NCBI RefSeq assembly: GCF_000175255.2
Contig: NC_017183.1
Coordinates: 1-32,000 of the forward strand
Direction of reading: 5' to 3'
Source of the DNA: Zymomonas mobilis subsp. mobilis ATCC 10988
GTDB lineage: Bacteria; Pseudomonadota; Alphaproteobacteria; Sphingomonadales; Sphingomonadaceae
DNA length: 32,000 bases
The position numbers were made by a program, and so were the translations under genes. Each line of letters starts with the position of its first letter. Position 1 is the first letter of the stretch. Positions 10,664 to 29,851 of this stretch are shown in pieces. The notes under the pieces are model-generated. The model searched no databases and was not told where the DNA came from. It worked only from the letters and a program-made list of their open reading frames with translations.

Positions 10664-10666
10664 CCC

Positions 10667-11408: not shown

Positions 11409-11580
11409 GGTGGCGCTTTTTATGCAGCCTTGCCCATTGGTAGCTTCCCTCGTTTTCCTGTTAAAATACTCCTTGTTTCTCAAAAGCTATGTCCTCTTTT
11501 TTTCGTTCTTCGGATTGTGTTTCATCTGGCTACGAGTAGGTACTTCTTAAAAAGAGGAAATGAGGAAAATTAGACAGGAA
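11406..11580. repeat. left copy of a long inverted repeat (partner at 30897..31170)
   Basis: By manual alignment, 11421..11500 is the reverse complement of 30975..31054 with 75 of 80 positions identical. Weaker similarity continues inward to about 11575 / 30897. An outer block at 11406..11426 matches 31153..31170. Confidence 0.85.
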
Positions 11581-11808
11581 TAGTCGTGGGAAGCTGCCGG
11601 TAAAAAGGTTCAACCATGCAATTTTGTTCGAGCTGAGAAAGATCAAATATAATATAAATGACCGTATCTATAATTATAAACGGTGTATGTTAAAAAAAGC
11701 CTTGATATCATTATCTCATTTCAGCTCAACAGAAAATCATAATAAAATTTTGTAAGTAAATACTAAATTTTTAGATTATCTATCTATATATTCTATAATT
11801 ATAATTTT

Positions 11809-14800
11809 TTAAGGTCTCATTTTTCTTCTAAGCTCGGTAAACTTAGGATCAGATTTTATACATTCAATATTACTGAGCTTATCGATTAATTCTCCTATTT
11901 TATATCCATAAAATATATCCTGTATATCAGATGGGATAATGACCTGAAGTAACTTAAAAATTTCTTTCGGAAATTTGAGTATGATTGTGTCATCCAAACG
12001 AGAAAAACAGTTAGCAATTTTCAAGCTATTTTTAATAATAGTTAATCGTGGTGAAATCAGTTGTACTATGTCCGGCATTTTATCATCTGCCAATAGCGCG
12101 ATTTCAATGAGTTCTTCAGATAAAGCTTGGGTTCGAGTTATAAGTTGACGTGGCCAGACTTTATTAAGAAATTCTATAACTTCTGTCCATTTTTGTTTTT
12201 CTTTTGCCCATATCTTGACAGAATTTATTATAGTAATGCGCCCTTTATCATCTGTTTTTATAAGAAAATCACGTAATTCTTCGTTATTAACTAGCCTGTC
12301 TCCTTCTTGATTTAATGATATCCATCCTCTAAATAGCAAGCGCATAACTATGCCATAATTTTTATGATTTTTCTGTGATACTAAATCGGTTAAAATTATT
12401 TTTAGACGAGCAAACAGATCATGGTTCCAGCTAGTATATTGACATGCTGATGAAATAAATGCCCTGGAGGATTCAGAATTAGGATTTTGCTCTATCTGTG
12501 AAATAATATGCTCATCAGTCCATTGCTTGTCGATAGAATAGATCCGGCCTAGCTTGGTGCCAAATATTGCCATAACACAACAAAGCGCATCATTCTTTGC
12601 TGATATTAGGCAATTAGCACGTGTGTGCCATTCCTCATCTATAGTCTTATTTAAGATTTCATCAATAAGTAATACTGTCATCTTACCTATAGGAGAGTTT
12701 ATCGATTTAAATAGCCAGTTTTCTTGTTTTTTATCTACAACTAGAGTTTCTGATTCTGCAAAAGAGATAAGGACAGATTTAACTATTCGTTCCCATAATT
12801 TTAAGTAGGATTTTTTTGCATCTATAGCCAATGCCCGACCATGTTGTTCCATCCATGATGCAATAGAATCAATGCTGGTATTGAATACTTCTTCTGATAA
12901 TGAGTAGATCCGTTCTACAATTAGTATCTTTAGTCTTAGTTTATCTGTACGGCGTGCTTCGTTACAGAGAAACTCTGACCAATATTGCCTACGGGTTTCT
13001 CCACGTTTCGCTGCATAAATTAAGGCAGCTAATGCCTTAACGGGGTATTCTTTTGATAATCCTTTAAAGGGGCGCCTTTCTATTAAAAAGTCAGGCGATT
13101 TTCTTGAAATATCATCAGATTTTTCTAGTATTTTATCAATAGGAATTCCAAATAGTTCTGTAATATCTGTGTCTGTAGCAACACAACCGCCGCGTGAACT
13201 TGATCTATAAGTATTATCTAGAGCATATTCCGGTGTCCATTCAGGGGTAATTTTACGCAGTTCTAGACGCTTTGTTTCTAAGTCGAAGCTGACCGTCAAT
13301 TTTTCTTTTTTAAGCCATTCAAGACGGTTAAGAATCTGACAGGTTCGATATTCTTTATATTGCTGGTCATCGATACCTTTATATCGTTTTGGACCGGATA
13401 AAATTTTATTTTCAATTTTTTCCCTTGTTTCTTCATCAAACTCGGACCATCGAGTATTAAGTGATACAAGCAAGTCATGCTGAATTTGGATATCCCAGAA
13501 CACATCATTCGATAAATTCAGAATTATGTCACTGGCCTCTTGTTGAGAGGTCAGTCCTGCTTGACCTGTTACCCAGACATATAAATTTCTAAAAATTTTA
13601 TCCTCTGAATCTGGCCATTTCCTCCATTCACAGCGCGCTGCCTCTGAATTATGCTCGTATAGCTGTTTTAATTCATTTGCGTAGTGTCTAATCAAAGAAG
13701 ATATATTTTCTTCCTCATTATCAGGAATGCTAGCTGGATCGTCATATTCAACGATAGGATGGAGTCTAGGATCAAAATAGCCTTGATTGTCAATCTCGAG
13801 ATCTTCGGCTGATTCTAGATAGCTGCGAATTACGCGTATATAACGAACTAAGAATTTTTTCGGGATTTTCATTTCAGTAGGATGATTTGGATAAATAACT
13901 TTTGCTGAGACGAGATCTTGATGATTTTTTGTATCATCTAGAGGTATTTTTCTTTTGCTTCCCACTGAAATGCGCGGTCGTTTTAGATTTTCAAATTCGC
14001 GCTGTAGCCAAGATGTCCAGCCTTCCTTTTTAGAAAAATAATATAGTTCCCAAAATTTTGAATTACAATTTTCATCCGATGAATCTGACTTAGATGACAA
14101 GAGTAAATGCCATGCCTGTCTGATAGGACTTTCCATATTTCCATCTATATTGTGAGTTATATTGTTAGTAAGTTCAGAGTGTAACCAGTTCTGGCGGCTA
14201 GCCCACCATACAGTGATATTTTGATTCACTACGCGGCCAATCCAGTACGCTAATGATTGTAGTCGTGCAGGAAGGTTGTTTCCTTTATTTCTGAGACTAA
14301 TAAACAAGTTCTGTTTGTTATTAGATGTTTCTTCAAATGCTGACCATACATTGGAAGGTATTAGATGTTTTTGTGAATTGTCCTCAGGAAGAGGTCGTGG
14401 ATCACTATCGAGGCAAAAGTTATTAAAGATCGCTAGGGGATCCAGTATTTCTTCAAATAAATCATGAAGATAATTTTGATTACTATATCGAATAAAAGGA
14501 TCAAAGACACATAGCCATTCCGCCGATGGGGGCGTTGCATGACCTGCAAATTTTTTCGCTCCAGAAGTTGATGACACGACATGGGCTACCTGTCCTCGTT
14601 CGTAAGGATCAAGCTCCCTAGGTTTTTTTAGTGCTTTGTCTGAAATGATAGATTTCTGCCACTCATGTGGATCATTCGCTCTCTCTCCCCACGCTTTCAG
14701 TGATTCCCACAGAGATGGGAAATCTTGATGAGAAATTGCAGTAACTCCCTTGTCCTGCCAGAGAGCGGAGGCTTCATCTTCCTTTCCTTGTTGAAAGGTA

Positions 14801-15537
14801 TACAGTCCTCTTGTTTTTGTTGATCCTTTCAAACCTTCAAGCAAATATTGAATCGGAGGATCATCTGCAGAATAACCAACGAAAACAATCTTATATCTTT
14901 CTACGAGAGTCTTCATGAAAGCTGTTGCCCATCCATCAGAGAGATAGGCGCGTCCAAAGTCGGCGGATGAGAGTATAAACTCCTTTGACGCTGCGTCTGA
15001 GTAGTCAGGATTGACCATACCATGCAAATGGATAATCCCTTCCCATTCATCTCTTCTGGGATCTGGCAAATCGGGGGGTGAAATTTCGGGGATATCTGGT
15101 GCAGCAAGCTGGAATAATCGATCAAAATTTGTTGTAATAAGCCGATGTCGTCCATTCGGCATTTTGGAAAGATTAAATAAAGATTTATGAGGATCAAGGC
15201 CAGGATTAGAGTTTGGTTTTACTGCCTGTGAAACATCTGATCGTATATCTTCTACCGCAAATTCTTGTTCTAATAATGCAAAAATTCTATCAGCGGGAGG
15301 TATACCTCCAACGCCGGGTGGGGTTTCTATCTTATCAGAAATTTCTAAAAGCTGTCGAGCTGGACTCGAAGCCGATGATCCAAGAGAAGAGATAACTCGT
15401 TTTGCTAGCTCAGGAAAGCTTAGCCCTCCTGCCTCTTGCATCGATATCCCAGCTCCACAGAAGAATAAAACTTCTCCTTCATCTCGCGCATAAAGAAGGT
15501 CATCTGGTATATCTGGGCCATCAGCAAAAAATCGCAT
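11809..15537 (-). CDS. large SIR2-domain protein, defence-associated sirtuin (DSR1/DSR2-like) candidate
   Basis: N-terminal SIR2_2-type motifs: FFCGAGIS, LITTNFDRLF, IIHLHGMV and VFVGYSADDPPIQYLL. About 1000 aa of helical sequence with no motif I recognise follows. Very AT-rich. The ORF track starts at TTG 15558; the ATG at 15537 (MRFFADGPD) is the more likely start. Confidence 0.8.
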   Translation of the reverse strand: MRFFADGPDIPDDLLYARDEGEVLFFCGAGISMQEAGGLSFPELAKRVISSLGSSASSPARQLLEISDKIETPPGVGGIPPADRIFALLEQEFAVEDIRSDVSQAVKPNSNPGLDPHKSLFNLSKMPNGRHRLITTNFDRLFQLAAPDIPEISPPDLPDPRRDEWEGIIHLHGMVNPDYSDAASKEFILSSADFGRAYLSDGWATAFMKTLVERYKIVFVGYSADDPPIQYLLEGLKGSTKTRGLYTFQQGKEDEASALWQDKGVTAISHQDFPSLWESLKAWGERANDPHEWQKSIISDKALKKPRELDPYERGQVAHVVSSTSGAKKFAGHATPPSAEWLCVFDPFIRYSNQNYLHDLFEEILDPLAIFNNFCLDSDPRPLPEDNSQKHLIPSNVWSAFEETSNNKQNLFISLRNKGNNLPARLQSLAYWIGRVVNQNITVWWASRQNWLHSELTNNITHNIDGNMESPIRQAWHLLLSSKSDSSDENCNSKFWELYYFSKKEGWTSWLQREFENLKRPRISVGSKRKIPLDDTKNHQDLVSAKVIYPNHPTEMKIPKKFLVRYIRVIRSYLESAEDLEIDNQGYFDPRLHPIVEYDDPASIPDNEEENISSLIRHYANELKQLYEHNSEAARCEWRKWPDSEDKIFRNLYVWVTGQAGLTSQQEASDIILNLSNDVFWDIQIQHDLLVSLNTRWSEFDEETREKIENKILSGPKRYKGIDDQQYKEYRTCQILNRLEWLKKEKLTVSFDLETKRLELRKITPEWTPEYALDNTYRSSSRGGCVATDTDITELFGIPIDKILEKSDDISRKSPDFLIERRPFKGLSKEYPVKALAALIYAAKRGETRRQYWSEFLCNEARRTDKLRLKILIVERIYSLSEEVFNTSIDSIASWMEQHGRALAIDAKKSYLKLWERIVKSVLISFAESETLVVDKKQENWLFKSINSPIGKMTVLLIDEILNKTIDEEWHTRANCLISAKNDALCCVMAIFGTKLGRIYSIDKQWTDEHIISQIEQNPNSESSRAFISSACQYTSWNHDLFARLKIILTDLVSQKNHKNYGIVMRLLFRGWISLNQEGDRLVNNEELRDFLIKTDDKGRITIINSVKIWAKEKQKWTEVIEFLNKVWPRQLITRTQALSEELIEIALLADDKMPDIVQLISPRLTIIKNSLKIANCFSRLDDTIILKFPKEIFKLLQVIIPSDIQDIFYGYKIGELIDKLSNIECIKSDPKFTELRRKMRP

Positions 15538-16166
15538 TCTAGATGTTAGCCTAAACAATAAGATTAAAATACATTTTAGTTTAATATTGAATAACTAAAT
15601 ATTTTTAATTGCATATAGATTTATCATCGTAAATTCAGGAAGGCTGTTAACCAGTCTACAAGTTTTTATAGAAAAAAATTATAAAATTTAAGTGAGGTAG
15701 AAGATAGCAATATATCTGGTACGTCCACGAACGAAGCGTGATCTATCTGCTCTTTCTGGATTGAAGCAGTTTTCCTCCATTGCAAGCCGTATGATCTGCT
15801 GCATAGGATATAAAGCGATCTTCTGGAGTTATGGAAATAACACAAAATGGAGACATCTTCGTGTTGCAGTGGAGGTTTGTTGGTGATCGAGATGTCTCTC
15901 ATGAACGCATCTGATCTATATAACTCTCTACATATTCCTGCGAAACAGTGCGATATGCTAGCCACCTGCCAACGATGAGCAGCTTATCGGTTGAGGTATC
16001 TAGCCAAAAATCCTAGGATCTAGATCAAGCAGTAGCGCGCTGTAGCCACTCGATATAAAAAATTGCGACATCATTTCTGGCTTTTATCCATTTTTTTCCA
16101 ACCATTTATTCCGTTTCAATTACCATATGGCTTAACTGACGAGGCGTCATCAGATCTGTTGTTTTT

Positions 16167-16211: not shown

Positions 16212-16490
16212 ATGCCTACAGCAAAAACAATGATACATATTCGGGTCGCAGGTGACCTGAAAGAACAGGTAAGCACTACCCTTGCCTCTATGGGCTTATC
16301 TGTTTCCGAAGCTGTTCGTTTATTCCTACATCGTGTCGTAGCAGAACAAAAATTCCCTTTCGAACTACGTGTCCCGAATGCAGAAACCCGGCTGGCAATG
16401 TCTGAAGCTGATGAAATTATTAAAAGCCACCAAAGTCGTTTTTCTAATTCCAAAGAGTTGATCGATGGCCTTGAAGCGCACAGCAAATAG
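16212..16490 (+). CDS. dinJ: RelB/DinJ-family antitoxin
   Basis: 92 aa. IHIRVAGDLKEQVSTTLASMGLSVSEAVRLFLHRVVAEQKFPFELRVPN parallels E. coli DinJ (VRARIDEDLKNQAADVLAGMGLTISDLVRITLTKVAREKALPFDLREPN). Confidence 0.85.
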   Translation: MPTAKTMIHIRVAGDLKEQVSTTLASMGLSVSEAVRLFLHRVVAEQKFPFELRVPNAETRLAMSEADEIIKSHQSRFSNSKELIDGLEAHSK

Positions 16491-16794
16491 TAAGCGTGCT
16501 TCTCTACCGAGATCCTCCGATTATACCAAAACCTTCCTAAAGGACTGGAAGCGCTTATCACGATCAGGACGCTACGATCTTAATCGTCTAAAGTCAGTCA
16601 TGATGCTCCTGATTGAGAATGATGAACCCTTGTCCGCTGAATGGTTAGATCATCCTTTAAAGGGTGAAATGGCCGCCTATAGGGAATGTCATATAGGGGG
16701 TGACTTCCTGCTTATTTACAGAATAGACAACAGCCGTCAGCCCGAAATGGTGATCTTCGTACGGGCGGGAACACATTCAGAACTCCTAGAATAA
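16465..16794 (+). CDS. yafQ: YafQ-family mRNA interferase toxin
   Basis: Motifs DHPLKGEMAAYRECHIGGDFLLIYR and RAGTHSELL. The ORF overlaps the antitoxin 3' end. The true start may lie a few codons downstream of 16465. Confidence 0.8.
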   Translation: MALKRTANSKRASLPRSSDYTKTFLKDWKRLSRSGRYDLNRLKSVMMLLIENDEPLSAEWLDHPLKGEMAAYRECHIGGDFLLIYRIDNSRQPEMVIFVRAGTHSELLE

Positions 16795-16849
16795 AGGCTT
16801 ATTTCTTAAAATACGTATCGACGTATATAGCTAAATACGTATTTAAGTT
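16790..16849. repeat. TACGTA-palindrome repeat, copy 1 (yafQ | parA gap)
   Basis: aataaaggctt...aatacgtatcg, then the core acgtatatagctaaatacgt (16821..16840) and atttaagtt. It ends 15 nt before the parA RBS and ATG. Confidence 0.85.
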
Positions 16850-16864
16850 AAAAAGGATTGACGT

Positions 16865-17488
16865 ATGCACGTTATTACGTTTTTAAGTCAAAAGGGCGGT
16901 AGTGGTAAGACAACCCTTTCGGTTCACACGGCTGTGGCAGCAGAGGCTGTCGGCAAGAAAGTCTGCATCATTGATGCTGATCCTCAAGAGAGTGCAACAA
17001 CTTGGGGGATGTCTCGGGAAAAGCCGACACCTATCGTAGCTACGGCTCAAGCTAGTGATCTGGATGCCGCCCTTTCGGCAGCTGAGGCAGAAGGTATAGA
17101 CTTGGCTATCATTGATGCACCGCCTCATGCCGCTCCTACGGCTAGTCAGATCGCCCGTCGAAGTGATTTTATTCTAGTCCCTATTAGACCAAGCGCTTTT
17201 GACTTAGCGGCTGTGCCGGCAATTATGGATATTATTAGGGCATCGAAATCGAGAGGCGCTTTCATTCTGTCAGCCTGTCCTTTCCGTGCTCCAGAGATCG
17301 AAGAGACACGCCTTGCTTTAGAAAGCTATAATCTTCCTATTTTTCCATCCGAGATTGTTGACCGTCGCGCTTTTGCTCGCGCAGTCACCACTGGATGCGC
17401 AGTCACAGAATTTGAAAGCAATGGCAAAGCTGCTGAAGAGATCCATCATTTATGGACTTGGATTAATAATACGTTAGAACGTATATAG
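16865..17488 (+). CDS. parA: ParA-family partition ATPase (small, type Ib-like)
   Basis: 207 aa with deviant Walker A SQKGGSGKTT, IIDADPQ and IIDAPP motifs. Confidence 0.9.
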   Translation: MHVITFLSQKGGSGKTTLSVHTAVAAEAVGKKVCIIDADPQESATTWGMSREKPTPIVATAQASDLDAALSAAEAEGIDLAIIDAPPHAAPTASQIARRSDFILVPIRPSAFDLAAVPAIMDIIRASKSRGAFILSACPFRAPEIEETRLALESYNLPIFPSEIVDRRAFARAVTTGCAVTEFESNGKAAEEIHHLWTWINNTLERI

Positions 17489-17520
17489 CTATATACGTAT
17501 ATACTTAAATAAGGGCTTTT
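17468..17520. repeat. TACGTA-palindrome repeat, copy 2 (parA | RHH gene gap)
   Basis: Perfect 20-bp palindrome acgtatatag|ctatatacgt at 17479..17498. It overlaps the parA stop codon and is followed by taaataagggcttttt. Confidence 0.85.
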
Positions 17521-17524
17521 TGCT

Positions 17525-17815
17525 ATGGCCAAGAAACCAACCGGACTAGCTGCTTTTTCCCGCCCTAAAGCGGTTACTCATCTTTCGACAGATGAGCCCA
17601 CCTCTACCATCGAAAATCAAACAGCCTTTCCGATGCGCAAGAAAAGAGGATCAGGTGACACCGTTGCTTTAACGGTGAAAGTTCGCCGCACCGATTGGCA
17701 ACGATTACGTCAGCTGGCGGATGCAGAGGGAACAACAATTCAAGCTATGGCCGAGGCAGGCTTTTCTGCTATCCTCGCCCAACATGGTTTAGCGTCTCTT
17801 AAGACAAGAAAGTAA
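17525..17815 (+). CDS. small ribbon-helix-helix protein, ParG/omega-like centromere-binding partner of ParA
   Basis: 96 aa. A disordered N-terminus is followed by an RHH-like C-terminus (VALTVKVRRTDWQRLRQLADAEGTTIQAMAEAGFSAIL). Located immediately downstream of parA. Confidence 0.6.
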   Translation: MAKKPTGLAAFSRPKAVTHLSTDEPTSTIENQTAFPMRKKRGSGDTVALTVKVRRTDWQRLRQLADAEGTTIQAMAEAGFSAILAQHGLASLKTRK

Positions 17816-17822
17816 ACGTATC

Positions 17823-17872
17823 AACGCATATAGCTAAATACGTATTGAGCTATATGCGTAAATAAAGATTTT
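17823..17872. repeat. TACGTA-palindrome repeat, copy 3 (nested palindromes)
   Basis: acgcatatagct (17833..17844), aaatacgtattg, then agctatatgcgt (17857..17868). The outer 12-bp arms are perfect inverted repeats. The inner AATACGTATT is itself a palindrome. Confidence 0.85.
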
Positions 17873-17912
17873 TTATATACGAGATGTCAATATTCACAGT
17901 TCTTGTCTAACA

Positions 17913-18572
17913 TTGCGCATCTGTCTTACTCAGATGAAAAATTGGTTAGAGTCTCATCCTCGTCATATACCGATTTTTGTTATGATCGAAGCCAAGGTAC
18001 AACCTTTGCATTTAAAGCTTGCTAGTAACCCAGCTAAAACCCCAAATTTTTCAAAAATACCGCCCTTCACCGATGAAACTTATAACGAAATCGATCAAAC
18101 TATTGTGGATGTATTAGGTCGAAACAAAGTTATTATCCCCGATGATGTGAGAGGCGGCTATCCTAATTTGGAAGATGCAGTTTTTGCTGGAAATTGGCCA
18201 ACACTTGGCCAAGCACGTGGAAAATTTATCTTTTTCTTAACAACAGCGACAGGCCGTGACGGCGTCGCGGCATATCTGAATGGTCATCCGGGGCTTAAAG
18301 GGCGAATGGCATTTATGGATTCCGAACCTGGAAAACCTTATGCCGCTTTTGTTCTTGAAGATAATGCCTTAACCCAGGGAAATATTATTCGGAATGATGT
18401 CAAAAAAGGATATATTGTCCGAACCAGAGCCGATATTGATACCTACGAAGCTAAAAAGAATGATCTAACAAGGGGGAAGGCTGCATTTGATTTTAGCGCT
18501 AAAGCGGCTGGCAACGCGGTATGTCGGAAAACCTCTGAGCACAATAAAGGTGCTCGGATTATTTCTCACTAA
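17913..18572 (+). pseudogene. fragment of a Ca2+-dependent PI-specific phospholipase C (PI-PLC-C1-like) gene
   Basis: The sequence starts mid-domain (WLESHPRHIPIFVMIE, NWPTLGQARGKFIFFL, GYIVRTRADIDTYEAKKNDLTR). The N-terminal catalytic half is absent and the expected C-terminal SGAQ..TDY end is replaced. The only available start is a TTG. Confidence 0.6.
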
Positions 18573-18707
18573 GAAGCGAAAAAATAAATATAGCGTTATA
18601 ATATAACTTTAAATATTAAATGTGATTCCCTGTGAGAAATAATATAATGTATTTTTTAAATGTAAAAAAAGTAATTTTAAAATAGATATTCATTTATTAA
18701 GTATTTT

Positions 18708-20078
18708 ATGAACGCATACGGAGAATTTTGTGGAAATAAAAAAATAAGTATTAAAAATTTCAGAGGCATTCAAAATGCCGATTTTGATTTTTGCAATAAA
18801 GTTAATCTAATAGTTGGTATTAATGGCGCAGGAAAAACGAGTGTTTTAGATAGTATAGCTCTATTATTATCATGGCTTATTAACAGAACTCTTAATAAAA
18901 ATTCTTCAGGACAACCAATTAATGATTTGAGTATTCGTAATGGGTGTCGGGAGGCCGCTCTTTCGATAACAGTAAATTATGATAATCAAGATTTTAACTG
19001 GATGCTTGTAAAAACAGGGAGAGGCTTAAATGCTAGATCTCAGAAATCAGAACTTTCTCTCTTGGCGGCTCTTTCCAAGAGATTCCAAATAGAGTTGGAT
19101 AATAAAAACGATGAGGCTTCACTGCCTTTGTTTGTCTATTATCCTGTAGATAGGGCAATTGTAAAGGTACCTATTCGGCGTCGAAGAAGACAGGCTTTTA
19201 GTCAATTATCTGCATATGATGAGGCTCTTAACCCAAACGTAAATTTTAAAAGTTTTTTTGAATGGTTTCGATTTGAGCAAGAGAAACATAATTCTTCTTT
19301 AGCTAATCTTCTGCATTCTATGGATTTGTCGGATACTGATTCCCTGCTTTTTAAAGCTACAAAATACAGAAAAACTATAAAAGAAATTCTTAAGGAATTA
19401 TATAATCCTCTATCTTCTAAAGGGTTGAAGGCGGTATGCCAAGCTATTTATGAATTTATGCCAGGATTTTCTGACCTTAGAGTTTTATACGAGCCATTAA
19501 GAATGGTGATCGAAAAAGAAGGTGTGCATTTAAATCTCCTTCAACTCTCTGGAGGAGAAAAATGTATGTTAGCGTTAATTGGAGATATCGCCCGACGACT
19601 TGTTCTAGCAAATCCCAGCATGGACAATCCCCTAAAAGGTAAAGCTATCATCTTGATAGATGAAATCGATCTTCACCTTCATCCAAGGTGGCAAAAAAAT
19701 ATTATAGAACGATTAAATTCTACATTTCCTAATTGTCAGTTTATTATAACAACACACTCTCCTCATATTATAACTCACGTTCATTCAAATTGTATATCCA
19801 TCATTTCTACAAATGAAAATGGAGCTTTTAATGTAAGTAAGGCTCGAAATTCTTACGGATTTTCTTCAGAAGTTCTTTTGTCTGAAATTATGGGACTGGA
19901 CACAACGCGTCCCCAAAAGATCCAAGATAAATTGGATAAAATTTTTCAAAATATTTCAGACAATGAACTGGATGAGGCAGAAACAAAGCTACAATGTTTA
20001 AAAACAATAATGAGAGACGATCCCGATGTCGTAAAAGCTGAGGCTCTTATTTTTAGAAAAAAAATTATCAATAAATGA
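18708..20078 (+). CDS. ptuA: Septu PtuA-like AAA ATPase (AAA_15/21 type)
   Basis: 456 aa. Walker A GINGAGKTSVLD, ABC-signature-like LSGGEK, Walker B ILIDEIDLHLHP and a TTHSP switch. Overlaps the downstream HNH gene by 4 nt. AT-rich. Confidence 0.75.
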   Translation: MNAYGEFCGNKKISIKNFRGIQNADFDFCNKVNLIVGINGAGKTSVLDSIALLLSWLINRTLNKNSSGQPINDLSIRNGCREAALSITVNYDNQDFNWMLVKTGRGLNARSQKSELSLLAALSKRFQIELDNKNDEASLPLFVYYPVDRAIVKVPIRRRRRQAFSQLSAYDEALNPNVNFKSFFEWFRFEQEKHNSSLANLLHSMDLSDTDSLLFKATKYRKTIKEILKELYNPLSSKGLKAVCQAIYEFMPGFSDLRVLYEPLRMVIEKEGVHLNLLQLSGGEKCMLALIGDIARRLVLANPSMDNPLKGKAIILIDEIDLHLHPRWQKNIIERLNSTFPNCQFIITTHSPHIITHVHSNCISIISTNENGAFNVSKARNSYGFSSEVLLSEIMGLDTTRPQKIQDKLDKIFQNISDNELDEAETKLQCLKTIMRDDPDVVKAEALIFRKKIINK

Positions 20079-20692
20079 AACAAATAAAAAAAACAAAAGA
20101 GCCTCAGTCCTTTTCTGAATGGAAGGCTAAAGCAAATTCTGATTGGAAACCTGCATGGGAAAATTTACAGAATCCTGAAAAAGTAGATATTTTAGAAAAG
20201 TTAATTGAAGATCAACATGGAATATGTTGTTATTGTGAAGCTAGAATCTCTGTAGAATCTGCACATATTGAACATATAGTTCCAAGGAGTATTGATATTA
20301 GAAAAAGGTTATCTTTTTCTAACCTTTTAGCATCTTGTCAAAAAGAAACTCAAAAAGGGGATCCTCTGACTTGCGGAAAATCTCGTGGCGATTGGTACGA
20401 TAAAGATTTTTATTTGAATCCATGTGATGAGAATTCTCGAAAAGAAATTATCTACTTATTAGATGGAAATGTTACGGTACAAAATAAAAATTTTAAAATT
20501 TTTATCGAAAAAATCAATTTAAATATTGAGTCAAAAAAAAGAGCACGTTCTAACGTTATAGATATTTTTACAGATTTAGATACTAGCGATGCCCAAAAAA
20601 TATTGGACGTTTGGCTCTCTGAAAAAGTATATCATCCTTATATAAGTGCAGCTCTCACTGCTGCTAAAGAGTTATGTGGAATTGAATACTGA
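20075..20692 (+). CDS. ptuB: Septu PtuB-like HNH nuclease (TIGR02646-type)
   Basis: 205 aa. HNH core reads CCYCEARISVESAHIEHIVPRS. ATGA-coupled to the ATPase gene. Confidence 0.75.
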   Translation: MKQIKKTKEPQSFSEWKAKANSDWKPAWENLQNPEKVDILEKLIEDQHGICCYCEARISVESAHIEHIVPRSIDIRKRLSFSNLLASCQKETQKGDPLTCGKSRGDWYDKDFYLNPCDENSRKEIIYLLDGNVTVQNKNFKIFIEKINLNIESKKRARSNVIDIFTDLDTSDAQKILDVWLSEKVYHPYISAALTAAKELCGIEY

Positions 20693-20822
20693 GAAATTTT
20701 TAACTTTCTAACACTACTAGATCGGAGAGATTTTACTTTGGCCATTTCCACTGGTCGTGTTGCCATAGAAAATAGAGGAAATATTGGTGGTTATCTTTGT
20801 TCTTTCCAGACCTTAAAAAATT

Positions 20823-20864
20823 AATACGTAAATACGTATGTAGTTATCTACGTATTTACGTAAT
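20823..20864. repeat. TACGTA-palindrome repeat, copy 4 (variant, downstream of ptuB)
   Basis: aatacgta, then aaatacgta-tgtagttatc-tacgtattt (9-bp perfect arms), then acgtaat. Confidence 0.7.
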
Positions 20865-20894
20865 TTTATCCATATTATTCCCTTACTATTACTA

Positions 20895-21741
20895 GGCTCA
20901 GGACTCATTCTTTGAGATAGAAGATGAAACTTGCTGCGATATGGATTGCTGACATGAATGTGTGAGCGCACCGGTCGTATCGTGTTGCGACACGCCGCCA
21001 GTCTTTGAGCTTTGCGAACATATTTTCGATGAGGTGACGTTTTTTATACAGATGCCAGTCGTAAGGCGGCTTTGATTTCCGGTTCTTCTTCGGCGGAATA
21101 CAGGCGGTGATATTCCGGTCTGCGAGAGACTGTCTGATTTTATTACTGTCGTATCCCCGGTCCCCGAGAATTTCTTGTGTTTCTTCCGGCAGATTTGCCA
21201 GCAGAACATCCGCGCCTTTGAAGTCACTGACCTGACCTGCGGTCAGATGCAGCCGGACAGGGCGGCCCTGACTATCGCATACAGCGTGAAGCTTTGAGTT
21301 CAGTCCGCCTTTCGTGCGTCCGATATGGCGGGGAAAAGCCCCTTTTTGAGCAGGGAGGCCGCTGTCCGGTGTGCTTTCAGATGTGTTGCATCGATCATCA
21401 GACGCTTTGAACGGCCTGCCTGCTCCGTCAGGGCGACGAAGATCCGGTCAAAGACACCCAGGCGGCTCCACCGGATAAACCGGTTGTATAAAGTCTTGTG
21501 CGGGCCATACGCTTTCGGGGCGTCTTTCCACTGAAGGCCGTTGCGGATCACGTAAACGATCCCGCTCAGGACACGACGGTCATCGACACGCGGCACACCA
21601 TGCGCCAGTGGAAAAAACGGCTTAATCCGTTCCATCTGGTGCTCAGACAGCAAAAACACGTCACTCACAGCTTCACCTCCATCGGTAAACCTGTGAATCA
21701 CAACAGCCCGCTCAACTCAAGAAATTAACAGGTCCTGAGCC
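20895..21741 (-). mobile_element. IS5-family insertion sequence (IS427-group-like), apparently intact
   Basis: Terminal inverted repeats ggctcaggac (20895..20904) and gtcctgagcc (21732..21741). Flanked by TA on both sides within a CTAG context. Length 847 bp. Confidence 0.85.
20905..21701 (-). CDS. IS5-family DDE transposase, two frames joined by a probable programmed -1 frameshift
   Basis: OrfA is 21300..21701. At the slippery ctcaaaaaggg (about 21335) the -1 frame continues as GGLNSKLHAVCDSQGRPVRLHLTAGQVSDF...GDRGYDS...HLIENMFAKLKDWRRVATRYDR...YLKE*. The ORF-track entry 20898..21227 is the wrong frame. Confidence 0.8.
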
Positions 21742-22300
21742 TAGATAAGCCAACTAGCTTAACGACAAGCCTTTGAACATTGGATACGATCCCGCGACAA
21801 CGAACTAACAAAACATTCCAGTGTTCTAACTCTGAAAGTTTTTATTCTGCTATCAAGCCAGACTGACTGGATAGATGACATCAAAATTGCTGATTAAATC
21901 AGAGTGTCCTTGGTCAAGAAATAGTGGTAAAATTATGTCTAATGTTGCCAAAAATCTCGAATTGACTTAAATGTGGAGTTCTGCGTTGAAATGCGTTGGG
22001 TGGAGAAGAATAATTTTATTAGATTATCTGCTTTATAGGCCTAAATACAGGCATTTATGACCTGTCTTGCGTCATATTCCGATGCGTAAAAATCGGGGGG
22101 CAAATTTACCGCGGGTTTCGGCTGGCATCGAACGCAAAGGGTCTGAAAAAACATTTCTGAAATAATATTGCTAACGTTTCGTTAGACATTTTTGGGTAAA
22201 TTTTAGACATAAAAAATCTGTCAGTTGTGCCTCACGCTTGATAAGCGAGGCAGATGCGTTACCTTCATACCATTCACATGATGGCGATCGAGATAATTAA

Positions 22301-22367
22301 AATAAAGGCTTTTTTGCAATACGTATAAACGCATATAGCTAAATACGTATTTAAATTGATAGCTACG
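22301..22367. repeat. TACGTA-palindrome repeat, copy 5 (upstream of darG)
   Basis: aaataaaggcttttttgcaatacgtata, then the core acgcatatagctaaatacgt (22329..22348), then atttaaattgatagcta. Same orientation as copy 6. Confidence 0.85.
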
Positions 22368-22377
22368 CCCGACCGGA

Positions 22378-23469
22378 ATGGTATTTCTGATGATTATCTT
22401 CACGCAAGGCAACCTACTAGAAGCTAAAGTCGAGGCTCTTGTTAATACCGTTAACACCGTCGGTGTGATGGGTAAGGGTATTGCGCTCATGTTTAAAGAG
22501 CGCTTCCACGAGAACTTTCGCCTGTATTCTGCTGCGTGTAAGGCTAAGGAAGTTCAAATCGGTAAGATGTTCGTTACTCCAGTCTATGAACTAGGGGAAA
22601 CACGCTGGATTGTGAACTTTCCGACTAAACAGCATTGGCGTAATCCGTCACGAATAGAATGGATTATAAAAGGCTTACAGGATCTACGGCGTGTCCTGCT
22701 CGAAAAGAATATAAAATCTATTGCTATTCCTCCTTTGGGTGCTGGCAATGGCGGGCTTTCATGGAAAGATGTTCGTGGACAGATCGAGTTGGCCTTAAGT
22801 GATCTCGATATTGATATTTTTGTGTTTGAGCCGACTACCCAATACCAAAACGTGGCTAAGAGGACAGGCGTAGAAAAACTAACGCCCGCCCGCGCGTTAA
22901 TAGCTGAATTAGTCCGTCGATACTGGGTAATGAGTATAGAGTGTAGTTTGCTTGAAATTCAAAAGCTGGCTTGGTTTCTTCAGAGAGCTATTGAACAGTA
23001 TTCTCCAGATAATAATCCACTGAATTTAGATTTTCAGCCACATAAATATGGTCCTTATACTCATCAGCTAAACCACTTGTTGAATAATTTAGATGGGAGC
23101 TATCTTCATTCTGATAAACGTATCAGCGATAGCGACCCGCTGGATGTCATTTTATTTGTTGATAAGCGCAAAGACGATTTACAGGCTTATTTGAAAAGTG
23201 AGGCCAAGCCTTACAGGCAAGCATTAGAATCTGCCGCCATGCTTATTGATGGTTTTGAGTCCCCCTTTGGGATGGAGCTGCTGGCTACAGTTGACTGGCT
23301 GCTAACTCGCGAAAATATAGAACCTAATGTGTCAGCTTTACGTAAGGGATTGCGTTCTTGGCGAGGTGGTGCAGATGCGGCCTTGCGTAAAGATCGAATT
23401 TTTAATGACCGATCTTTGGGAATTGCCCTTGATCGCTTAACTAAAATCTCTACGCCTGTAATGGCGTAG
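22378..23469 (+). CDS. darG: DarG-like macrodomain DNA ADP-ribosyl glycohydrolase (antitoxin) without a cognate darT
   Basis: The N-terminal 150 aa match the DarG macrodomain pattern almost motif for motif ([57 protein letters not shown]). The C-terminal roughly 200 aa contain a KLAWFLQ...KYGPY block. The likely true start is the ATG at 22390 ([10 protein letters not shown]). Confidence 0.8.
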
Positions 23470-23552
23470 AGTGTCTTATCTCTTCTTTATTGAGGAAGCT
23501 ATTAGGCCGAAATAGTCATCTGTTTTCAATTAGGTAATTATCCATAACGCCT

Positions 23553-23650
23553 AAAATAAAGGTTTTTTATAAATGGAGATACGTCTTAACGTATATAGCT
23601 AAATACGTATTTAAGTTAATAGCTATATTTGTATTTACGTATTATGTAGC
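23553..23650. repeat. TACGTA-palindrome repeat, copy 6 (downstream of darG)
   Basis: aaaataaaggttttttataaatggagatacgtctta, then the core acgtatatagctaaatacgt (23589..23608), then atttaagttaatagcta...gtatttacgtatt. Confidence 0.85.
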
Positions 23651-23783
23651 CTGATGCTACTTATATGATATTCGGTTAGCTGGGAGAGATAATGTAAAGA
23701 TACAGCCCGTTATTAACAGAAGGTTGAATGCCAATTTCACAGGAATTGCAGCGGTTAGAAAGAAAAGGGCTTTTGGTTCTTAA

Positions 23784-24047
23784 TTAAAAGAAATCGGGTG
23801 GAGGTGCCGGTGCCGGAACAGCATTTGCGTCGAATGCGAACAAGGCAAATTGCAACCAAGAGGGTTCTCGTTTTACTATCCCATTTTCAAAGCGAGAAAT
23901 CGATTGTTGTGTAGTGGTGAAAATAGCACCTCGCTTTTCAGCTTCCTTAGAAACCATATCGGCTAGCTTTTGCGCACTCCATCCCCTTTTTATCCGAGAC
24001 GCTCGAACAAACTCGCGGAGCTTATCTAAATCCGTTAAGTTATCCAT
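23784..24047 (-). CDS. atypical HTH (XRE-like) protein, paralog 1 of 3
   Basis: 87 aa. Carries the shared N-terminal module (RGWSAQKLAD...QQSISRFENG..K..PSWL). Confidence 0.65.
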   Translation of the reverse strand: MDNLTDLDKLREFVRASRIKRGWSAQKLADMVSKEAEKRGAIFTTTQQSISRFENGIVKREPSWLQFALFAFDANAVPAPAPPPDFF

Positions 24048-24052
24048 CTGGC

Positions 24053-24559
24053 CTATTCGTTGTAAAGCAAAGGGTGAGATAACGCGACTGGGAATTTTTT
24101 TGCCAGTGAAGATGCAATATTTTGTTTAAGTGACCATGAGTCACTAAAGTCTACATCCAAAGGAACTAATAAACTCAAAAACAAGTTTTTGAGTTTATCT
24201 TCGCTTGGAAGAATTTCTTTATAGATAATTTTTTTATTATCATCTTCTGATATTGTATCAGTCGAAAATTTCGGTTCTTCTTCTTTTGTGAAAGAAGGTT
24301 TAGATACTACAAAATCTGTTAGTTTAGCCTGCTCCAACAAAGCTGCTTTTACATAATTCAGCCACAGAGGTATCGACTTTATTTTTCCATTTTCAAACAA
24401 GGAAATAGATTGCTGTTGTAAATTTAGTTTAACGCCATGACGTGCAGCCACCTGTTTTGCTTCGTCAGCTAACTTTGCTGCCGTCCAGTTTATACGTTTA
24501 CGCTCATTTCTTATCCATGTGCGTATTTCGTCTATTTTTGAGATACTGGTCTGCGTCAT
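24053..24559 (-). CDS. atypical HTH (XRE-like) protein, paralog 2 of 3
   Basis: 168 aa. Same N-terminal module (INWTAAKLADEA...QQQSISLFENGKIKSIPLWL). Its C-terminal block LKNLFLSLLVPLD...IASSLAKKFP is shared with paralog 3. Confidence 0.65.
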   Translation of the reverse strand: MTQTSISKIDEIRTWIRNERKRINWTAAKLADEAKQVAARHGVKLNLQQQSISLFENGKIKSIPLWLNYVKAALLEQAKLTDFVVSKPSFTKEEEPKFSTDTISEDDNKKIIYKEILPSEDKLKNLFLSLLVPLDVDFSDSWSLKQNIASSLAKKFPVALSHPLLYNE

Positions 24560-24584
24560 AATATCTATTTATACCAAAAAGATA

Positions 24585-25034
24585 TTACTGAAACAAACTT
24601 ATCTGTTCCAAGCCTTTCGGAAGACGTTGCGCTAAAATACTGGCAATTTTTCGTTTTAATTGGGGTGTTATATCTTCCTCTACTGGAGTTAAAAGACCCA
24701 GAAACAATTTTTTAAGATCTTTTTCTTCCGGAAGGCCGACATTTTTTGATGCATTACATTTTGTTAAGGTAATGGAGTTCATCGTCGGAGAGATAGGGTT
24801 ATTCTCAAATGCAGCCATTACATAAGGCATCCATGACGGAATGCTCTTAATTTGCCCAAGTTCAAAGGCAGAAATGGATTGCTGCTTAAGGTTACTTTCG
24901 ACGTTTCTTTGTTTTGCAGCCATACGCGCTTCTTCAGCGAGTTTTGTTCGACTCCAGCCTCGTAGCTGTCGTTCTTCAAAAATCCACTTACGGAATTTTT
25001 CAACAGTTCTCAATTTTGAAGATGCTTCATTCAT
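24585..25034 (-). CDS. atypical HTH (XRE-like) protein, paralog 3 of 3
   Basis: 149 aa. N-terminal module RGWSRTKLAEEA...KQQSISAFELGQIKSIPSWM. C-terminal block LKKLFLGLLTPVE...IASILAQRLP. Confidence 0.65.
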   Translation of the reverse strand: MNEASSKLRTVEKFRKWIFEERQLRGWSRTKLAEEARMAAKQRNVESNLKQQSISAFELGQIKSIPSWMPYVMAAFENNPISPTMNSITLTKCNASKNVGLPEEKDLKKLFLGLLTPVEEDITPQLKRKIASILAQRLPKGLEQISLFQ

Positions 25035-25076
25035 GCAGCGATTCTACAATTGAATCAGATCTCAAACACCTGAAAA

Positions 25077-25172
25077 ACAATTGCATAATTTTTTATAAAA
25101 CTGAAAAATGATTTTTTTATATTGCAAAAAATTGCAAATCATAATATCCACAATAAAATGCAATTTTTTGGA
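25077..25172. promoter_or_regulatory. AT-rich divergent control region with repeated TTGCA(A/T) plus T/A-run boxes
   Basis: Boxes: attgcataatttttt (25080), attgcaaaaaattgcaaatc (25121) and aatgcaattttttgg (25157). They lie between the divergently oriented HTH operon and the small-gene operon. No function has been shown. Confidence 0.3.
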
Positions 25173-25314
25173 TTCGATTTAACTATGTTTCTATCTTTAG
25201 AGAATTTCTTTCGGCAAGAGTCAATCAAAAATTTGACTGTGGTTTAGGTAAAAAGAAAAAAATCACAATTTTTTGTTGGTTAGATACAATTATATACTCA
25301 AAAAGGTAGATAAA

Positions 25315-25536
25315 ATGATGGCAAACGAAGGTAAAGATATAAAGCCATCTACCATAATTCTATTTTGCCAACAGTTTGATTTGAAAAACAATAATCACGA
25401 TTATTGTTCTCAATTAATAGGCCGTCAATCTCTAAAAATCTTTTTTAAATCTAGCACTAACAAGACAGCCATAGCTTGTCTTTCATTGGGGCGGCCAGTT
25501 TCCCTTCGGGTGAAGAGTAAGATCAATGACAATTAA
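25315..25536 (+). CDS. hypothetical small protein (73 aa from ATG 25315)
   Basis: An ORF with an aaaagg RBS-like element about 9 nt upstream of ATG 25315. Its end overlaps the start of the next ORF. No motif recognised. Confidence 0.4.
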   Translation: MMANEGKDIKPSTIILFCQQFDLKNNNHDYCSQLIGRQSLKIFFKSSTNKTAIACLSLGRPVSLRVKSKINDN

Positions 25537-25843
25537 AACAGCCGAAAATATGCCCTCCTTAATTGATGGCGAGATCAGCACATTCAAGCAGAAGATTAGC
25601 AATGCCATGTATCTTTATATGGGGCAGATGGAATGCGGTCTTCGCCTGTTGATGGATCGCTTGGAAGGTATTCGTCGGGCAGAAGAGACCCGCTCTTATG
25701 CTTTACTGGAAAATGTCTCAAAAGATGAATTAATAAGATTTAATACTGAAATATTAAGTCTTATCGAGGTGATTAAACGTTCGGCAACTACGGCCAATGA
25801 GGGCTTGAACGGCTTTATCCAAAACTTTGGTTCGTCTTTATGA
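25526..25843 (+). CDS. hypothetical helical protein (105 aa)
   Basis: The start overlaps the end of the preceding ORF by 11 nt. The sequence looks helical. No motif recognised. Confidence 0.45.
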   Translation: MTIKTAENMPSLIDGEISTFKQKISNAMYLYMGQMECGLRLLMDRLEGIRRAEETRSYALLENVSKDELIRFNTEILSLIEVIKRSATTANEGLNGFIQNFGSSL

Positions 25844-25967
25844 CCCATTGTTTTTTCAGCCTTTCCTATTTGGAAAAGACCTGTTCTGTTTCCGTCAGTT
25901 CTAACCTTGGGCTTCAGACCGAGGCCTATTCGGCACCCCCTCATCTTCTCATTGGAGAGACCGTCTT

Positions 25968-26219
25968 ATGAGTTCTATTCATGCGACCGAAGAGCTGACT
26001 GAAAAGCTCCAATCCATTATCCGTCTTGAAGAAGAAAAGGCGCGTTTGGATGGCCAGATTGCCGAAGCCTATCGTGATCTGAAAGGCCAGAAATACGACA
26101 TCAAGAAGGCCAAGCTTGCGGTCAGCCGTTCGCGGAAAGGTCATCCTGAAAACTCTATTCGTATTCTGATCAACCAGATCGTCAATGATCGGGCGATGAG
26201 CCGGAAGCTTGTCCCGTGA
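25968..26219 (+). CDS. DUF2312 / GapR-like small DNA-binding protein
   Basis: KLQSIIRLEEEKARLDGQIAEAYRDLKGQKYDIKKAKLAVSRSRK parallels Caulobacter GapR ([48 protein letters not shown]), with a short deletion. Confidence 0.6.
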   Translation: MSSIHATEELTEKLQSIIRLEEEKARLDGQIAEAYRDLKGQKYDIKKAKLAVSRSRKGHPENSIRILINQIVNDRAMSRKLVP

Positions 26220-26268
26220 TCAGAACCGGCGCAGCCTCTTCCCTTTTATCTATTTCAAATTCAGGCCT

Positions 26269-26301
26269 GCCACAGCGGAGAATCTTCGCTGTGGCTTTTT
26301 T
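26269..26301 (+). terminator. Rho-independent terminator after the GapR-like gene
   Basis: gccacagcg (26269..26277), a 9-nt loop, cgctgtggc (26287..26295), then tttttt. Confidence 0.7.
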
Positions 26302-26325
26302 GCGTCCAAGACCGGAGCCCGCACA

Positions 26326-28083: not shown

Positions 28084-28260
28084 CCCTGTCAGCTATCATT
28101 CTGACAGATCACCGTCTATTTATTCCTCCGGTGCTGTTCGCTTCGCTCACAGGCTTGGCGAGAAAGGAATTTGCCTTTCAGTAGAGCTATCTAATTTCTA
28201 AAAATTCGCATTATCGATAATGTAATAAAAAGCTAATTTTTAAAAACCAAATTATAGCGA

Positions 28261-28288
28261 TTACATCAAATCTATGAATGTGTATAAT
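28261..28288 (+). promoter_or_regulatory. candidate sigma70-type promoter of hicA
   Basis: ttacat (28261..28266), a 16-nt spacer, then tataat (28283..28288). The hicA ATG lies only 7 nt after the -10 element, implying a leaderless or near-leaderless mRNA. Confidence 0.35.
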
Positions 28289-28295
28289 ACATAAT

Positions 28296-28445
28296 ATGAA
28301 AAGTCGTGATTTGATCAAAGAAGTTGAAAAAGCAGGATGGATACTCGACCGAACACGTGGCTCTCATCATATCACGATACCACATCCTAAAAAGGAACTT
28401 GGTGTTGGGCTTGTTCGGGCTATCCGTAAGCAAGCCGGATTGTAG
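28296..28445 (+). CDS. hicA: HicA-family toxin, unusually short (49 aa)
   Basis: MKSRDLIKEVEKAGWILDRTRGSHHITIPHPKKELGVGLVRAIRKQAGL. Absent from the ORF track (fewer than 60 aa). Compared with typical HicA, about 10 residues between GSHH and the PHPKK block are missing. Confidence 0.7.
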   Translation: MKSRDLIKEVEKAGWILDRTRGSHHITIPHPKKELGVGLVRAIRKQAGL

Positions 28446-28454
28446 GAGAAGTTT

Positions 28455-28880
28455 ATGCGTTATCCTGTTGCTATAGAGCCAGATACAAAATCTACGGCTT
28501 TTGGTATTGTCGTACCGGATTTACCCGGTTGCTTCTCGGCTGGCGATACGATGGATGAAGCTATTGCCAATGCTGAAGAAGCCGCATCTGCTTGGATCGA
28601 TGCCACATTAGATAGTGGTCAAGATATTCCTGTACCTAGTTCTATCTCAGATTTATATAAGAACCCTGATTATAAAGGATGGTCTTTCGGTTTTATCAAT
28701 ATAGATCCAGCTTTGTTGAGTGATAGGGTAAAGCGGGTAAACATTACTTTACCTGAAAGAGTTCTCGAACGTCTTGATCTCTTGGCCAAAAAGGCAGGAG
28801 AAACTCGTTCTGGTATGATCGCTTCTTTGACCTTAAAAGCTCAAAAACAAACAGATCATCATTCAGCTGTTATGATCTAA
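28455..28880 (+). CDS. hicB: HicB-family antitoxin with C-terminal RHH domain
   Basis: MRYPVAIEPD...FGIVVPDLPGCFSAGDTMDEAIANAEEA is the HicB fold. The C-terminus reads RVNITLPERVLERLDLLAKKAGETRSGMIA. Confidence 0.85.
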   Translation: MRYPVAIEPDTKSTAFGIVVPDLPGCFSAGDTMDEAIANAEEAASAWIDATLDSGQDIPVPSSISDLYKNPDYKGWSFGFINIDPALLSDRVKRVNITLPERVLERLDLLAKKAGETRSGMIASLTLKAQKQTDHHSAVMI

Positions 28881-28934
28881 CAAGTAGTAATCCAAATATA
28901 GTCCCATATATTTTATAGGGTATGTCGTAAAACC

Positions 28935-28966
28935 AAGAGCGCCGATTATTCGGCGCTCTTTTTTGT
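28935..28966 (+). terminator. Rho-independent terminator after hicB
   Basis: aagagcgccg-attatt-cggcgctctt, followed by ttttgt. Confidence 0.75.
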
Positions 28967-29850: not shown

Positions 29851-29851
29851 T

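Follow-up and report, generated by a model that had tools for sequence, protein, structure and literature searches.

Arrays of an 8-bp unit on a Zymomonas mobilis plasmid are most likely the centromere and operator sites of a type Ib partition system

In the first 32,000 nucleotides of contig NC_017183.1 from Zymomonas mobilis subsp. mobilis ATCC 10988 (hereafter the window), copies of a TACGTA-rich palindrome lie in the gaps around genes of very different kinds: the partition ATPase gene parA and the gene of a 96-aa ribbon-helix-helix (RHH) protein that follows it, the defence genes ptuA and ptuB with an insertion sequence (IS), and the antitoxin gene darG. These copies raise the question of whether they are partition sites, operators of a wider network, seams for the exchange of cargo, or mere remains. 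We designated the places of the repeat arrays S1 to S7 from left to right; S6 and S7 are fused in the window (Table 1). The arrays are most likely centromere/operator arrays of a type Ib partition system, as suggested by the architecture of the locus, the predicted fold of the RHH protein, and the co-occurrence of arrays and genes. We also hold it to be rather probable that the arrays are DNA sites of this system whose extra copies were made by recombination and can be used as crossover points.

The occurrence of the repeats is not random. The 20-bp core ACGTATATAGCTATATACGT is found seven times in the window at up to three mismatches, compared with 0.00 times across 100 dinucleotide-preserving shuffles. 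The copies start at 16821 (one mismatch), 17479 (none), 17824 (two), 17840 (three; this copy overlaps the one at 17824), 20834 (three), 22329 (two), and 23589 (one). The motif ATACGTAT has eight copies where 0.24 are expected, and the whole set lies inside 16811-23610. A register-aware scan of the window and its shuffles, with a threshold of at least 4/5 in-phase boxes, gave exactly six arrays in the 32 kb (S1, S2, S3, S4, S5, and S6/S7) and 0.03 in the shuffles. These counts bear out an earlier note on this DNA, which had proposed at least six palindromic copies. The core positions in that note are right for 16821, 17479, 22329, and 23589, whereas its third copy starts at 17824 instead of 17833, and the variant that it placed at 20823 actually has its core at 20834, in an array from 20826. 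It also named the occupied gaps correctly (yafQ-parA, parA-RHH gene, RHH gene-PLC, ptuB-IS, and both sides of darG), but its wider statement that nearly every boundary is marked goes too far, because no copy is present between the PLC gene and ptuA or to the right of the IS.

The 20-bp palindrome is merely the centre of each array, and the true repeat is an 8-bp unit. Each unit consists of a 4-bp box (ACGT, AGCT, ACGC or GCGT; weaker toward the edges) and a 4-bp AT-rich spacer, and the pattern written in blocks of eight reads ACGTATnn ACGTATAT AGCTAAAT ACGTATTT AAGTTAAT AGCTATTA ACGTTATT ACGTTTTT. In the window, a single register per array accounts for 32 of the 33 strict boxes, and box-to-box distances up to 40 bp are multiples of 8 in 65 of 69 cases. 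The arrays expand and contract by whole units. S3 of the window has a two-unit (16-bp) insertion, ACGTATTG AGCTATAT, at 17840-17855 relative to pZYMOP01, and S5 and S6 have in common a one-unit (8-bp) deletion, which eliminates the parA ATG. The arrays correspond to no known RNA, as an Rfam scan of 16-26.3 kb with E values up to 1 gave two sub-threshold chance matches only. The 20-bp core was found in none of the viral contigs, and metagenomes contained one isolated, unrelated palindrome. Similarity to the S1 region within the plasmid collection is restricted to plasmids bearing this par locus.

S1, S2, and S3 are arranged around parA and the RHH gene. ParA matches the Pfam families AAA_31, CbiA, VirC1, and MipZ from residue 1 and is annotated as ParA in relatives. 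Its length of 207 aa is within the range of ~200-230 aa for type Ib, and it lacks an N-terminal DNA-binding domain or any extra domain. Its small partner is encoded directly downstream and has a flexible N-terminal tail and a C-terminal predicted RHH fold. The family alignment of this 96-aa protein shows a conserved N-terminal MAKKxTGLAAF motif (GLAAF is invariant), a variable linker, and a highly conserved C-terminal strand-helix-helix, VALTVKV..DWQRLRQLADAEG..IQAMAEAGFSAVLAQ. In the AlphaFold model, residues 1-45 are of low confidence or disordered, and two helices (55-68 and 72-86) have predicted local distance difference test (pLDDT) scores above 90. The best Foldseek matches are all RHH proteins (ORF56, Arc, NikA, CopG, CopA, and AmrZ), and ParG is found at rank 45. 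Judging from the model, the 96-aa protein resembles ParG at the fold level only and does not appear to be its sequence homologue.

The first eight codons of parA (16865-16888) and its last six codons with the stop (17463-17488) are themselves array sequence. The bases at both ends of the gene double as coding sequence and presumed binding boxes, and this arrangement is kept in distant homologues (…TLER[KI]* at the 3′ end).

The window represents a Z. mobilis-type plasmid with 90-95% identity in parts to pZA1001, pZM1252602, pZM32 (strain ZM4), pZYMOP01, and pZZ6.02. The same seven array places were found in the three full-length Zymomonas plasmids that were first scanned, and S4 is missing from pZM1252602. 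In the Zymomonas relatives, S1 lies between yafQ and parA, S2 between parA and the RHH gene, and S3 after the RHH gene; S4 is the palindromic variant, S5 is upstream of darT-darG, S6 follows darG, and S7 is ~290 bp beyond S6. Homologues of the RHH protein number more than 120, and almost all of them are unnamed and annotated only as 'hypothetical'. A genome scan gave 31 loci of other alphaproteobacteria, many of them on a ~14-kb plasmid, with RHH identities of ~62-68%. In these high-GC hosts, boxes of the same types keep the 8-bp register ahead of parA and continue into the start of its coding sequence. The parA/RHH junction bears a flagged array in 30 of the 31 loci (17 distinct junction sequences, window included), and 29 have one directly after the RHH stop codon. 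Boxes are still present in homologues at 46-53% RHH identity. Across hosts the boxes persist, and the spacers drift with the GC content of the host, becoming GC-richer in high-GC hosts. The three regular 8-bp-unit arrays around parA and the RHH gene are thus conserved in homologous loci, and the arrays travel with parA-RHH, not with rep or with the HTH (helix-turn-helix) genes specific to Zymomonas. The sister plasmids of ~14 kb have two further arrays, one between a resolvase gene and a copG-like/rep-like operon and the other ~70 bp upstream of parDE. Because these plasmids also carry extra arrays, the presence of several arrays per plasmid is a family trait.

The earlier note was right in tying the repeats to the partition system, and the analysis predicts that they are the kind of site that an RHH partition protein binds. 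Its premise that a type Ib centromere is normally a single cluster fails, however, on the parC1 and parC2 clusters of pB171 par2, the several parS sites of pSM19035, and the three arrays around the homologous parA-RHH pairs.

Contigs of ~13.9-14.2 kb with near-identical par regions occur in assemblies of many unrelated genera, for example Sphingobium, Rhizobium, Microvirga, Amorphus, Altericroceibacterium, and a 'Bacillota' metagenome-assembled genome. Either a highly promiscuous small plasmid or a contaminant that recurs in sequencing projects would account for them. In pZM32, where S1 lies around 4986-5073, S5 around 11795-11874, and the RHH homologue is ZMO1_RS09195, the annotated parA overlaps the RHH gene (5046-5714 and 5690-5980, respectively), and S2 (5644-5714) is weaker, with 3/4 boxes. 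The yafQ toxin gene of pZM32 (4660-4975) is listed as a pseudogene in Table S1 of PMC7566282. The par locus of this model strain may be partly damaged.

Because the architecture matches that of the TP228 partition system (discussed below), we infer that the RHH protein binds the arrays, recruits ParA, and represses its own operon at S1, the probable operator. Each 8-bp unit would bind one dimer of the 96-aa protein, and runs of 5-10 units would be coated cooperatively. The conserved N-terminal tail of the RHH protein would contact and stimulate the 207-aa ParA ATPase, and ParA would move and space the plasmid copies. The working locus would consist of S1, S2, and S3 around the two genes. S3 and S4 go back to a single array that followed the RHH gene, and they now stand on either side of variable cargo. 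S6 and S7 belong, as its S1-type and S2-type arrays, to a second par locus with a gutted parA, and S5 is a copy of S6. The spare arrays S4-S7 keep their boxes and are probably still bound as extra centromere sites; S5 may also repress darT-darG. Near-identical array patches of 40-90 bp would provide the crossover points for insertions and deletions.

Several results weigh against this explanation. The Foldseek E-values of the 96-aa protein are weak (0.7-7), which is expected because the domain has only 45 residues, and its Pfam Antitox_RHH match is below threshold. At E values up to 10, a PDB search with a profile of 26 family members brought up neither ParG nor any other RHH chain. In distant homologues, covariation between the RHH strand and the boxes gave no signal; the same boxes occur throughout, so that only constant co-occurrence was seen. 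A consensus promoter/terminator scan of 16.1-24.1 kb gave 22 promoter-like sites compared with 19.7 expected, none of them usable in S1 or S5. The neighbourhood also encodes further small DNA-binding proteins, namely RelB, an HTH protein, a GapR-like protein, and HicB. Finally, gene conversion between repeats, and not selection for binding, could have kept the spare arrays so similar.

The origin of the distant arrays can be traced in the relatives. The S6 region of pZM1252602 is 72.6% identical to the yafQ-3′/S1/parA-5′ region over 175 bp (E 2e-26), and its S7 region is 70% identical to parA-3′/S2 over 132 bp (E 9e-15). The interval between S6 and S7 in the relatives matches ParA residues 1-20 and 102-208 with 26% identity (E 7e-7). 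Because both the flanks and the interval match yafQ, S1, parA, and S2, the segment from S6 to S7 is a second par locus with a gutted parA. S5 is a further array of the S1/S6 type, copied from S6, and direct repeats therefore stand on both sides of darT-darG. What the earlier note had regarded as a common feature of the copies, the AATAAAGG(C)TTTTT arm, differs in origin between them: it is the paralogous yafQ stop region at S1, S5, and S6, the ribosome-binding site (RBS) of the RHH gene at copy 2, and, at copy 3, an internal part of the PLC gene that a deletion placed next to the array. Between S1 and S6, 39 of 42 positions in the array core are identical (93%), compared with 91 of 150 in the flanks (61%). 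The corresponding values for S2 and S7 are 24 of 32 in the array and 71 of 161 in the flanks. As far as the alignments indicate, the excess of array identity over the flanks fits selection for binding or gene conversion.

The arrays are also places where the plasmids differ. In pZZ6.02 (15 kb), a single array after the RHH gene combines the left flank of S3 with the right flank of S4; S3 and S4 therefore both stem from the same ancestral array, irrespective of the direction of the event. The cargo between them is a PLC fragment and ptuAB in the window, a TonB receptor gene and PLC in pZM32, and PLC fragments, an IS5 element, a dCTP deaminase gene, and a hypothetical gene in pZYMOP01. In the window, a deletion took the TonB receptor gene and the 5′ part of the PLC gene, and its left junction (17846/17861) lies inside S3, in agreement with the PLC truncation that had been noticed shortly after copy 3. 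The deletion of darT has its left end in unit 6 of S5 and spared the last nine darT codons, and the same junction is present in pZYMOP01 and pZZ6.02. The gap left by darT is accordingly downstream of copy 5, between S5 and darG, and not upstream as had been stated. A distinct, internal darT deletion (11875-12050) is found in pZM32. In pZM1252602 (23737-25460), the only relative examined with an intact darT, an S1-type array stands upstream of the intact darT-darG pair. The toxin gene darT has been lost at least two times independently, with the darG antitoxin gene kept. The S6/S7 fusion of the window reflects a crossover in an AGCTAT unit, with deletion of ~270 bp of the dead parA relic that is present in relatives.

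An IS5-family element is located ~30 bp to the right of S4 both in the window and in pZZ6.02 (~13819-14650). The two copies have opposite orientations and insertion points ~5 bp apart, and they are two independent insertions at one hot spot.

By our own count, 3/8 of the distinct synteny breakpoints in 16-25.4 kb lie inside arrays, which make up ~4% of that stretch. The rearrangements look like ordinary homologous or illegitimate recombination between repeated DNA and not like a dedicated cassette system, because the junction positions vary, an array is fused to internal gene sequence in one case, and none of the neighbouring genes was recognised as encoding a recombinase. The view of the repeats as recombination seams is accordingly correct in that rearrangements end inside S3, S5, and S6/S7 and that S3 and S4 are one array in pZZ6.02, but not in its sense of dedicated cassette swapping.

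Control of darG and the defence cargo by the partition repressor, with the extra arrays as selected operators in the manner of omega on pSM19035, is unlikely, although it is the likeliest of the rivals. Omega sites overlap several promoters on pSM19035 (PMC9499535), and the position of S5 is suggestive: it lies 10-25 bp upstream of darG in the window and upstream of the intact darT-darG pair in pZM1252602. The sister-plasmid arrays upstream of the copG-like/rep-like operon and ~70 bp upstream of parDE point the same way, as does the conservation of the spare arrays, which is far better than that of their flanks. However, those sister arrays could be bound by the adjacent CopG-like or ParD RHH proteins, and the promoter scan placed none in S1 or S5. 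Two convergent genes end on either side of S6/S7, which is explained as the remains of the dead par locus, S4 lies between the ptuB 3′ end and the IS, and neither ptuA nor the PLC gene is preceded by an array. The proposal that the defence cargo (ptuAB and PLC) is wired to the partition repressor is not supported: none of these genes has an array at its 5′ end. Nor is a network of operators supported as an account of the window: S4 and S6/S7 have no adjacent gene start, and descent explains the copies around darG. Control of darG from S5 is possible, and S5, directly upstream of darT/darG, is the only credible candidate for an extra operator in the window.

A related idea, which we put forward as tentative and unlikely, is that S5 (darT-darG) and the sister arrays near rep and parDE are under the partition repressor and that the arrays are preferred entry points for cargo. 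If true, control of S5, rep, and parDE would make the RHH protein an omega-like global regulator in alphaproteobacteria. Both variable slots have the topology array-cargo-array, as though cargo came in by crossover between arrays on two molecules; centromere repeats would then organise an exchange site for defence genes.

It is improbable that only S1-S3, or no array at all, are in use and that the others are decaying duplicates homogenised by gene conversion. S6 and S7 do flank a dead parA, the window lost part of both by their fusion, and pZM1252602 lost S4. On the other hand, the array cores are 93% identical to S1 with flanks down to 61%, and the spare arrays are kept in most of the relatives examined.

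It is very improbable that the arrays, like the attC/attI sites of integrons, are recognised by a site-specific recombinase for the insertion and excision of cargo: two slots do have a direct-repeat topology of array, cargo, and array (S3-cargo-S4 and S5-darTG-S6), and the breakpoints inside arrays (3/8) also speak for it, but no recombinase domain is present among the ORFs (open reading frames) tested in or beside 16-25 kb, the junctions fall at differing units and positions inside the arrays, the one that joins an array to the PLC gene interior indicates an illegitimate deletion, and the duplicated copies bear flanking par-gene remnants, which indicates duplication of the whole locus and not of a site.

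Further candidates were rejected. Replication iterons do not fit, because in the window 2.6 kb separate the end of the nearest array (S6/S7) from the rep-like gene at 26209, and the arrays follow parA-RHH, not rep. Miniature inverted-repeat transposable elements or REP-like elements are excluded by the absence of terminal repeats and target duplications and by the par-gene remnants in the copies, and integron-like cassettes by the absence of a recombinase in the ORFs tested in or beside the region and by the variable junctions. Operators of the HTH proteins are also rejected, because the Sphingobium sister plasmid lacks these HTH paralogues in its annotated stretch and yet keeps the arrays.

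The features of the region are collected in Table 1. The segment 18504-21745 (ptuAB, S4, and the IS) has no counterpart in the four relatives, whereas the PLC fragment 17861-18503 has one; S4 alone would be too short to give a match. In the ~570 bp from S4 and the IS to S5 (21746-22312), the sole ORF of at least 50 aa is 22221-22490 on the minus strand, which continues into darG. This stretch is 93% identical to pZYMOP01, and the matching slot holds an opposite-strand toxin-antitoxin pair in other relatives (HTH-PIN in pZM32 and phd/doc-like in pZZ6.02). The outer parts of the window (1-16000 and 24000-32000) are rich in defence and addiction genes.

Table 1. Features in and around the array region of the window.
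Feature	Position	Strand	Remarks
Type I restriction-modification genes	4566-10663		
SIR2-like protein, 1249 aa	11809-15558	-	
Mrr-N fragment	within 1-16000 or 24000-32000		
relB	16212-16490		
yafQ	16465-16794		ORF end at 16794
yafQ stop region AATAAAGGCTTATTT	16790..16804	+	Copied along with the array at S5 and S6 (paralogue alignment)
S1	16805-16900		Array of ~10 units upstream of parA, extending into parA codons 1-8; putative operator and part of the centromere
parA	16865-17488	+	207 aa, small Walker-type partition ATPase
S2	17463-17518		Spans the last parA codons, the parA stop, and the RBS of the RHH gene; perfect palindrome 17479-17498
RHH gene	17525-17815	+	96 aa; candidate centromere-binding protein
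S3	17808-17871		Begins at the RHH stop codon; two-unit (16-bp) duplication; right end joined to the PLC fragment by a deletion
Variable cargo between S3 and S4	17861..20692	+	
5′-truncated PI-PLC	ORF 17913-18572	+	Pfam
ptuA-like ATPase	18708-20078	+	Pfam
ptuB-like HNH	20075-20692	+	Pfam
S4	20826-20865		Five units, nearly palindromic; right border of the cargo
IS5-family element	20895-21745	-	Inverted ends GGCTCAGGAC / GTCCTGAGCC; DUF4096 transposase domain; matches to IS5 elements
S5	22313-22368		S1-type array; yafQ-stop arm 22301-22315; immediately upstream of darG
darT, last 9 codons	22364-22390	+	tblastn with darT of pZM1252602
darG, macro-domain antitoxin	22378-23469 (ATG 22378 or 22390)	+	Pfam Macro domain
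Relic of a second yafQ 3′ end, in front of S6	23497..23572	+	blastn against the functional yafQ-S1 region, 74-76% identity
S6/S7 fusion	23573-23644		Left part S6 (S1-type), right part S7 (S2-type)
Rep-like HTH protein, 624 aa	26209-28083		Preceded by a GapR-like gene
HicB	28455-28880		

A term search of two Zymomonas plasmid papers (PMC5930841 and PMC10832546) found no mention of the repeats, of a centromere, or of this par locus. The present analysis predicts a role and a recognition unit, an ACGT-type box every 8 bp, for an unnamed family of 90-100-aa RHH proteins on plasmids of Zymomonas, Brucella/Ochrobactrum, Agrobacterium, Rhizobium, Sphingobium, and others. For Z. mobilis, an industrial ethanol producer, it locates a putative stability determinant and the rearrangement spots of pZM32-type plasmids, which are useful for vector design and plasmid curing. 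The locus also illustrates how centromere repeats can feed plasmid mosaicism: a slot for defence genes is now bracketed by the two copies of an ancestral array, and a dead second par locus survives only as predicted binding arrays. The mechanism will not surprise a specialist, but the family-wide prediction of sites and the array-cargo-array topology are worth testing.

Among known systems, the closest in architecture is TP228. ParG of TP228 binds as one dimer per degenerate 4-bp box, irrespective of box orientation, with 4-bp AT-rich spacers between the boxes; eight boxes form the operator OF and twelve the centromere parH, at least eight boxes are needed for good activity, and the flexible N-terminal tail of ParG contacts the ATPase ParF (PMC3130281). 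As in ParF-ParG, a small Walker ATPase is followed here by a small protein with a flexible tail and a predicted C-terminal RHH domain, and as in parH and OF, degenerate 4-bp boxes stand at a regular 4-bp AT-rich spacing. In contrast to the ACTC box of TP228, the box here is ACGT or AGCT and is itself palindromic, and the 96-aa protein has no detectable sequence similarity to ParG. Whereas TP228 has one upstream block, the arrays here lie on either side of each gene, overlapping the parA start, the parA stop, and the RHH stop, and extra copies lie kilobases away.

The delta-omega system of pSM19035 is likewise comparable in having several separate arrays per plasmid and an RHH centromere-binding protein, for which the 96-aa protein is the candidate here. 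Omega has several parS arrays of short contiguous repeats, through which partition, copy-control, and toxin-antitoxin genes are also regulated, the arrays being their operators (PMC9499535). In architecture, the parallel that the earlier note drew with these sites is apt. However, pSM19035 belongs to a Firmicute host and uses 7-bp WATCACW heptads, in contrast to the 8-bp ACGT-type units found here, and only S1 (parA) and S5 (darG) precede genes in the window, where an operator role is putative.

The repeats of pB171 par2 are 6-bp units, and that plasmid is not known to have an array between its two genes or distant paralogous copies. Like the present system, par2 is a type Ib locus with clusters of binding sites on both sides of the genes, in the order parC1-parA-parB-parC2 (PMC4270457). 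The same earlier note also drew a comparison with KorB and its OB sites on RK2, which resemble the present arrays in that a partition protein has sites scattered over the plasmid; the function of a global regulator is a feature of KorB. KorB is a large helix-turn-helix ParB (type Ia) that acts on single 13-bp palindromes, not on arrays of short units. The unit itself resembles that of MetJ, an RHH repressor that binds cooperatively as one dimer per 8-bp met box in tandem units with an ACGT centre (AGACGTCT). Unlike the present system, MetJ is a chromosomal metabolic repressor with a co-repressor and has no ParA partner or partition role. The partition system of the window is most likely an uncharacterised RHH member of type Ib, which would work like ParFG/parH without sequence kinship to ParG, and it is distinguished by its 8-bp array of ACGT boxes, its well-resolved history of duplication, and its role as a recombination substrate.

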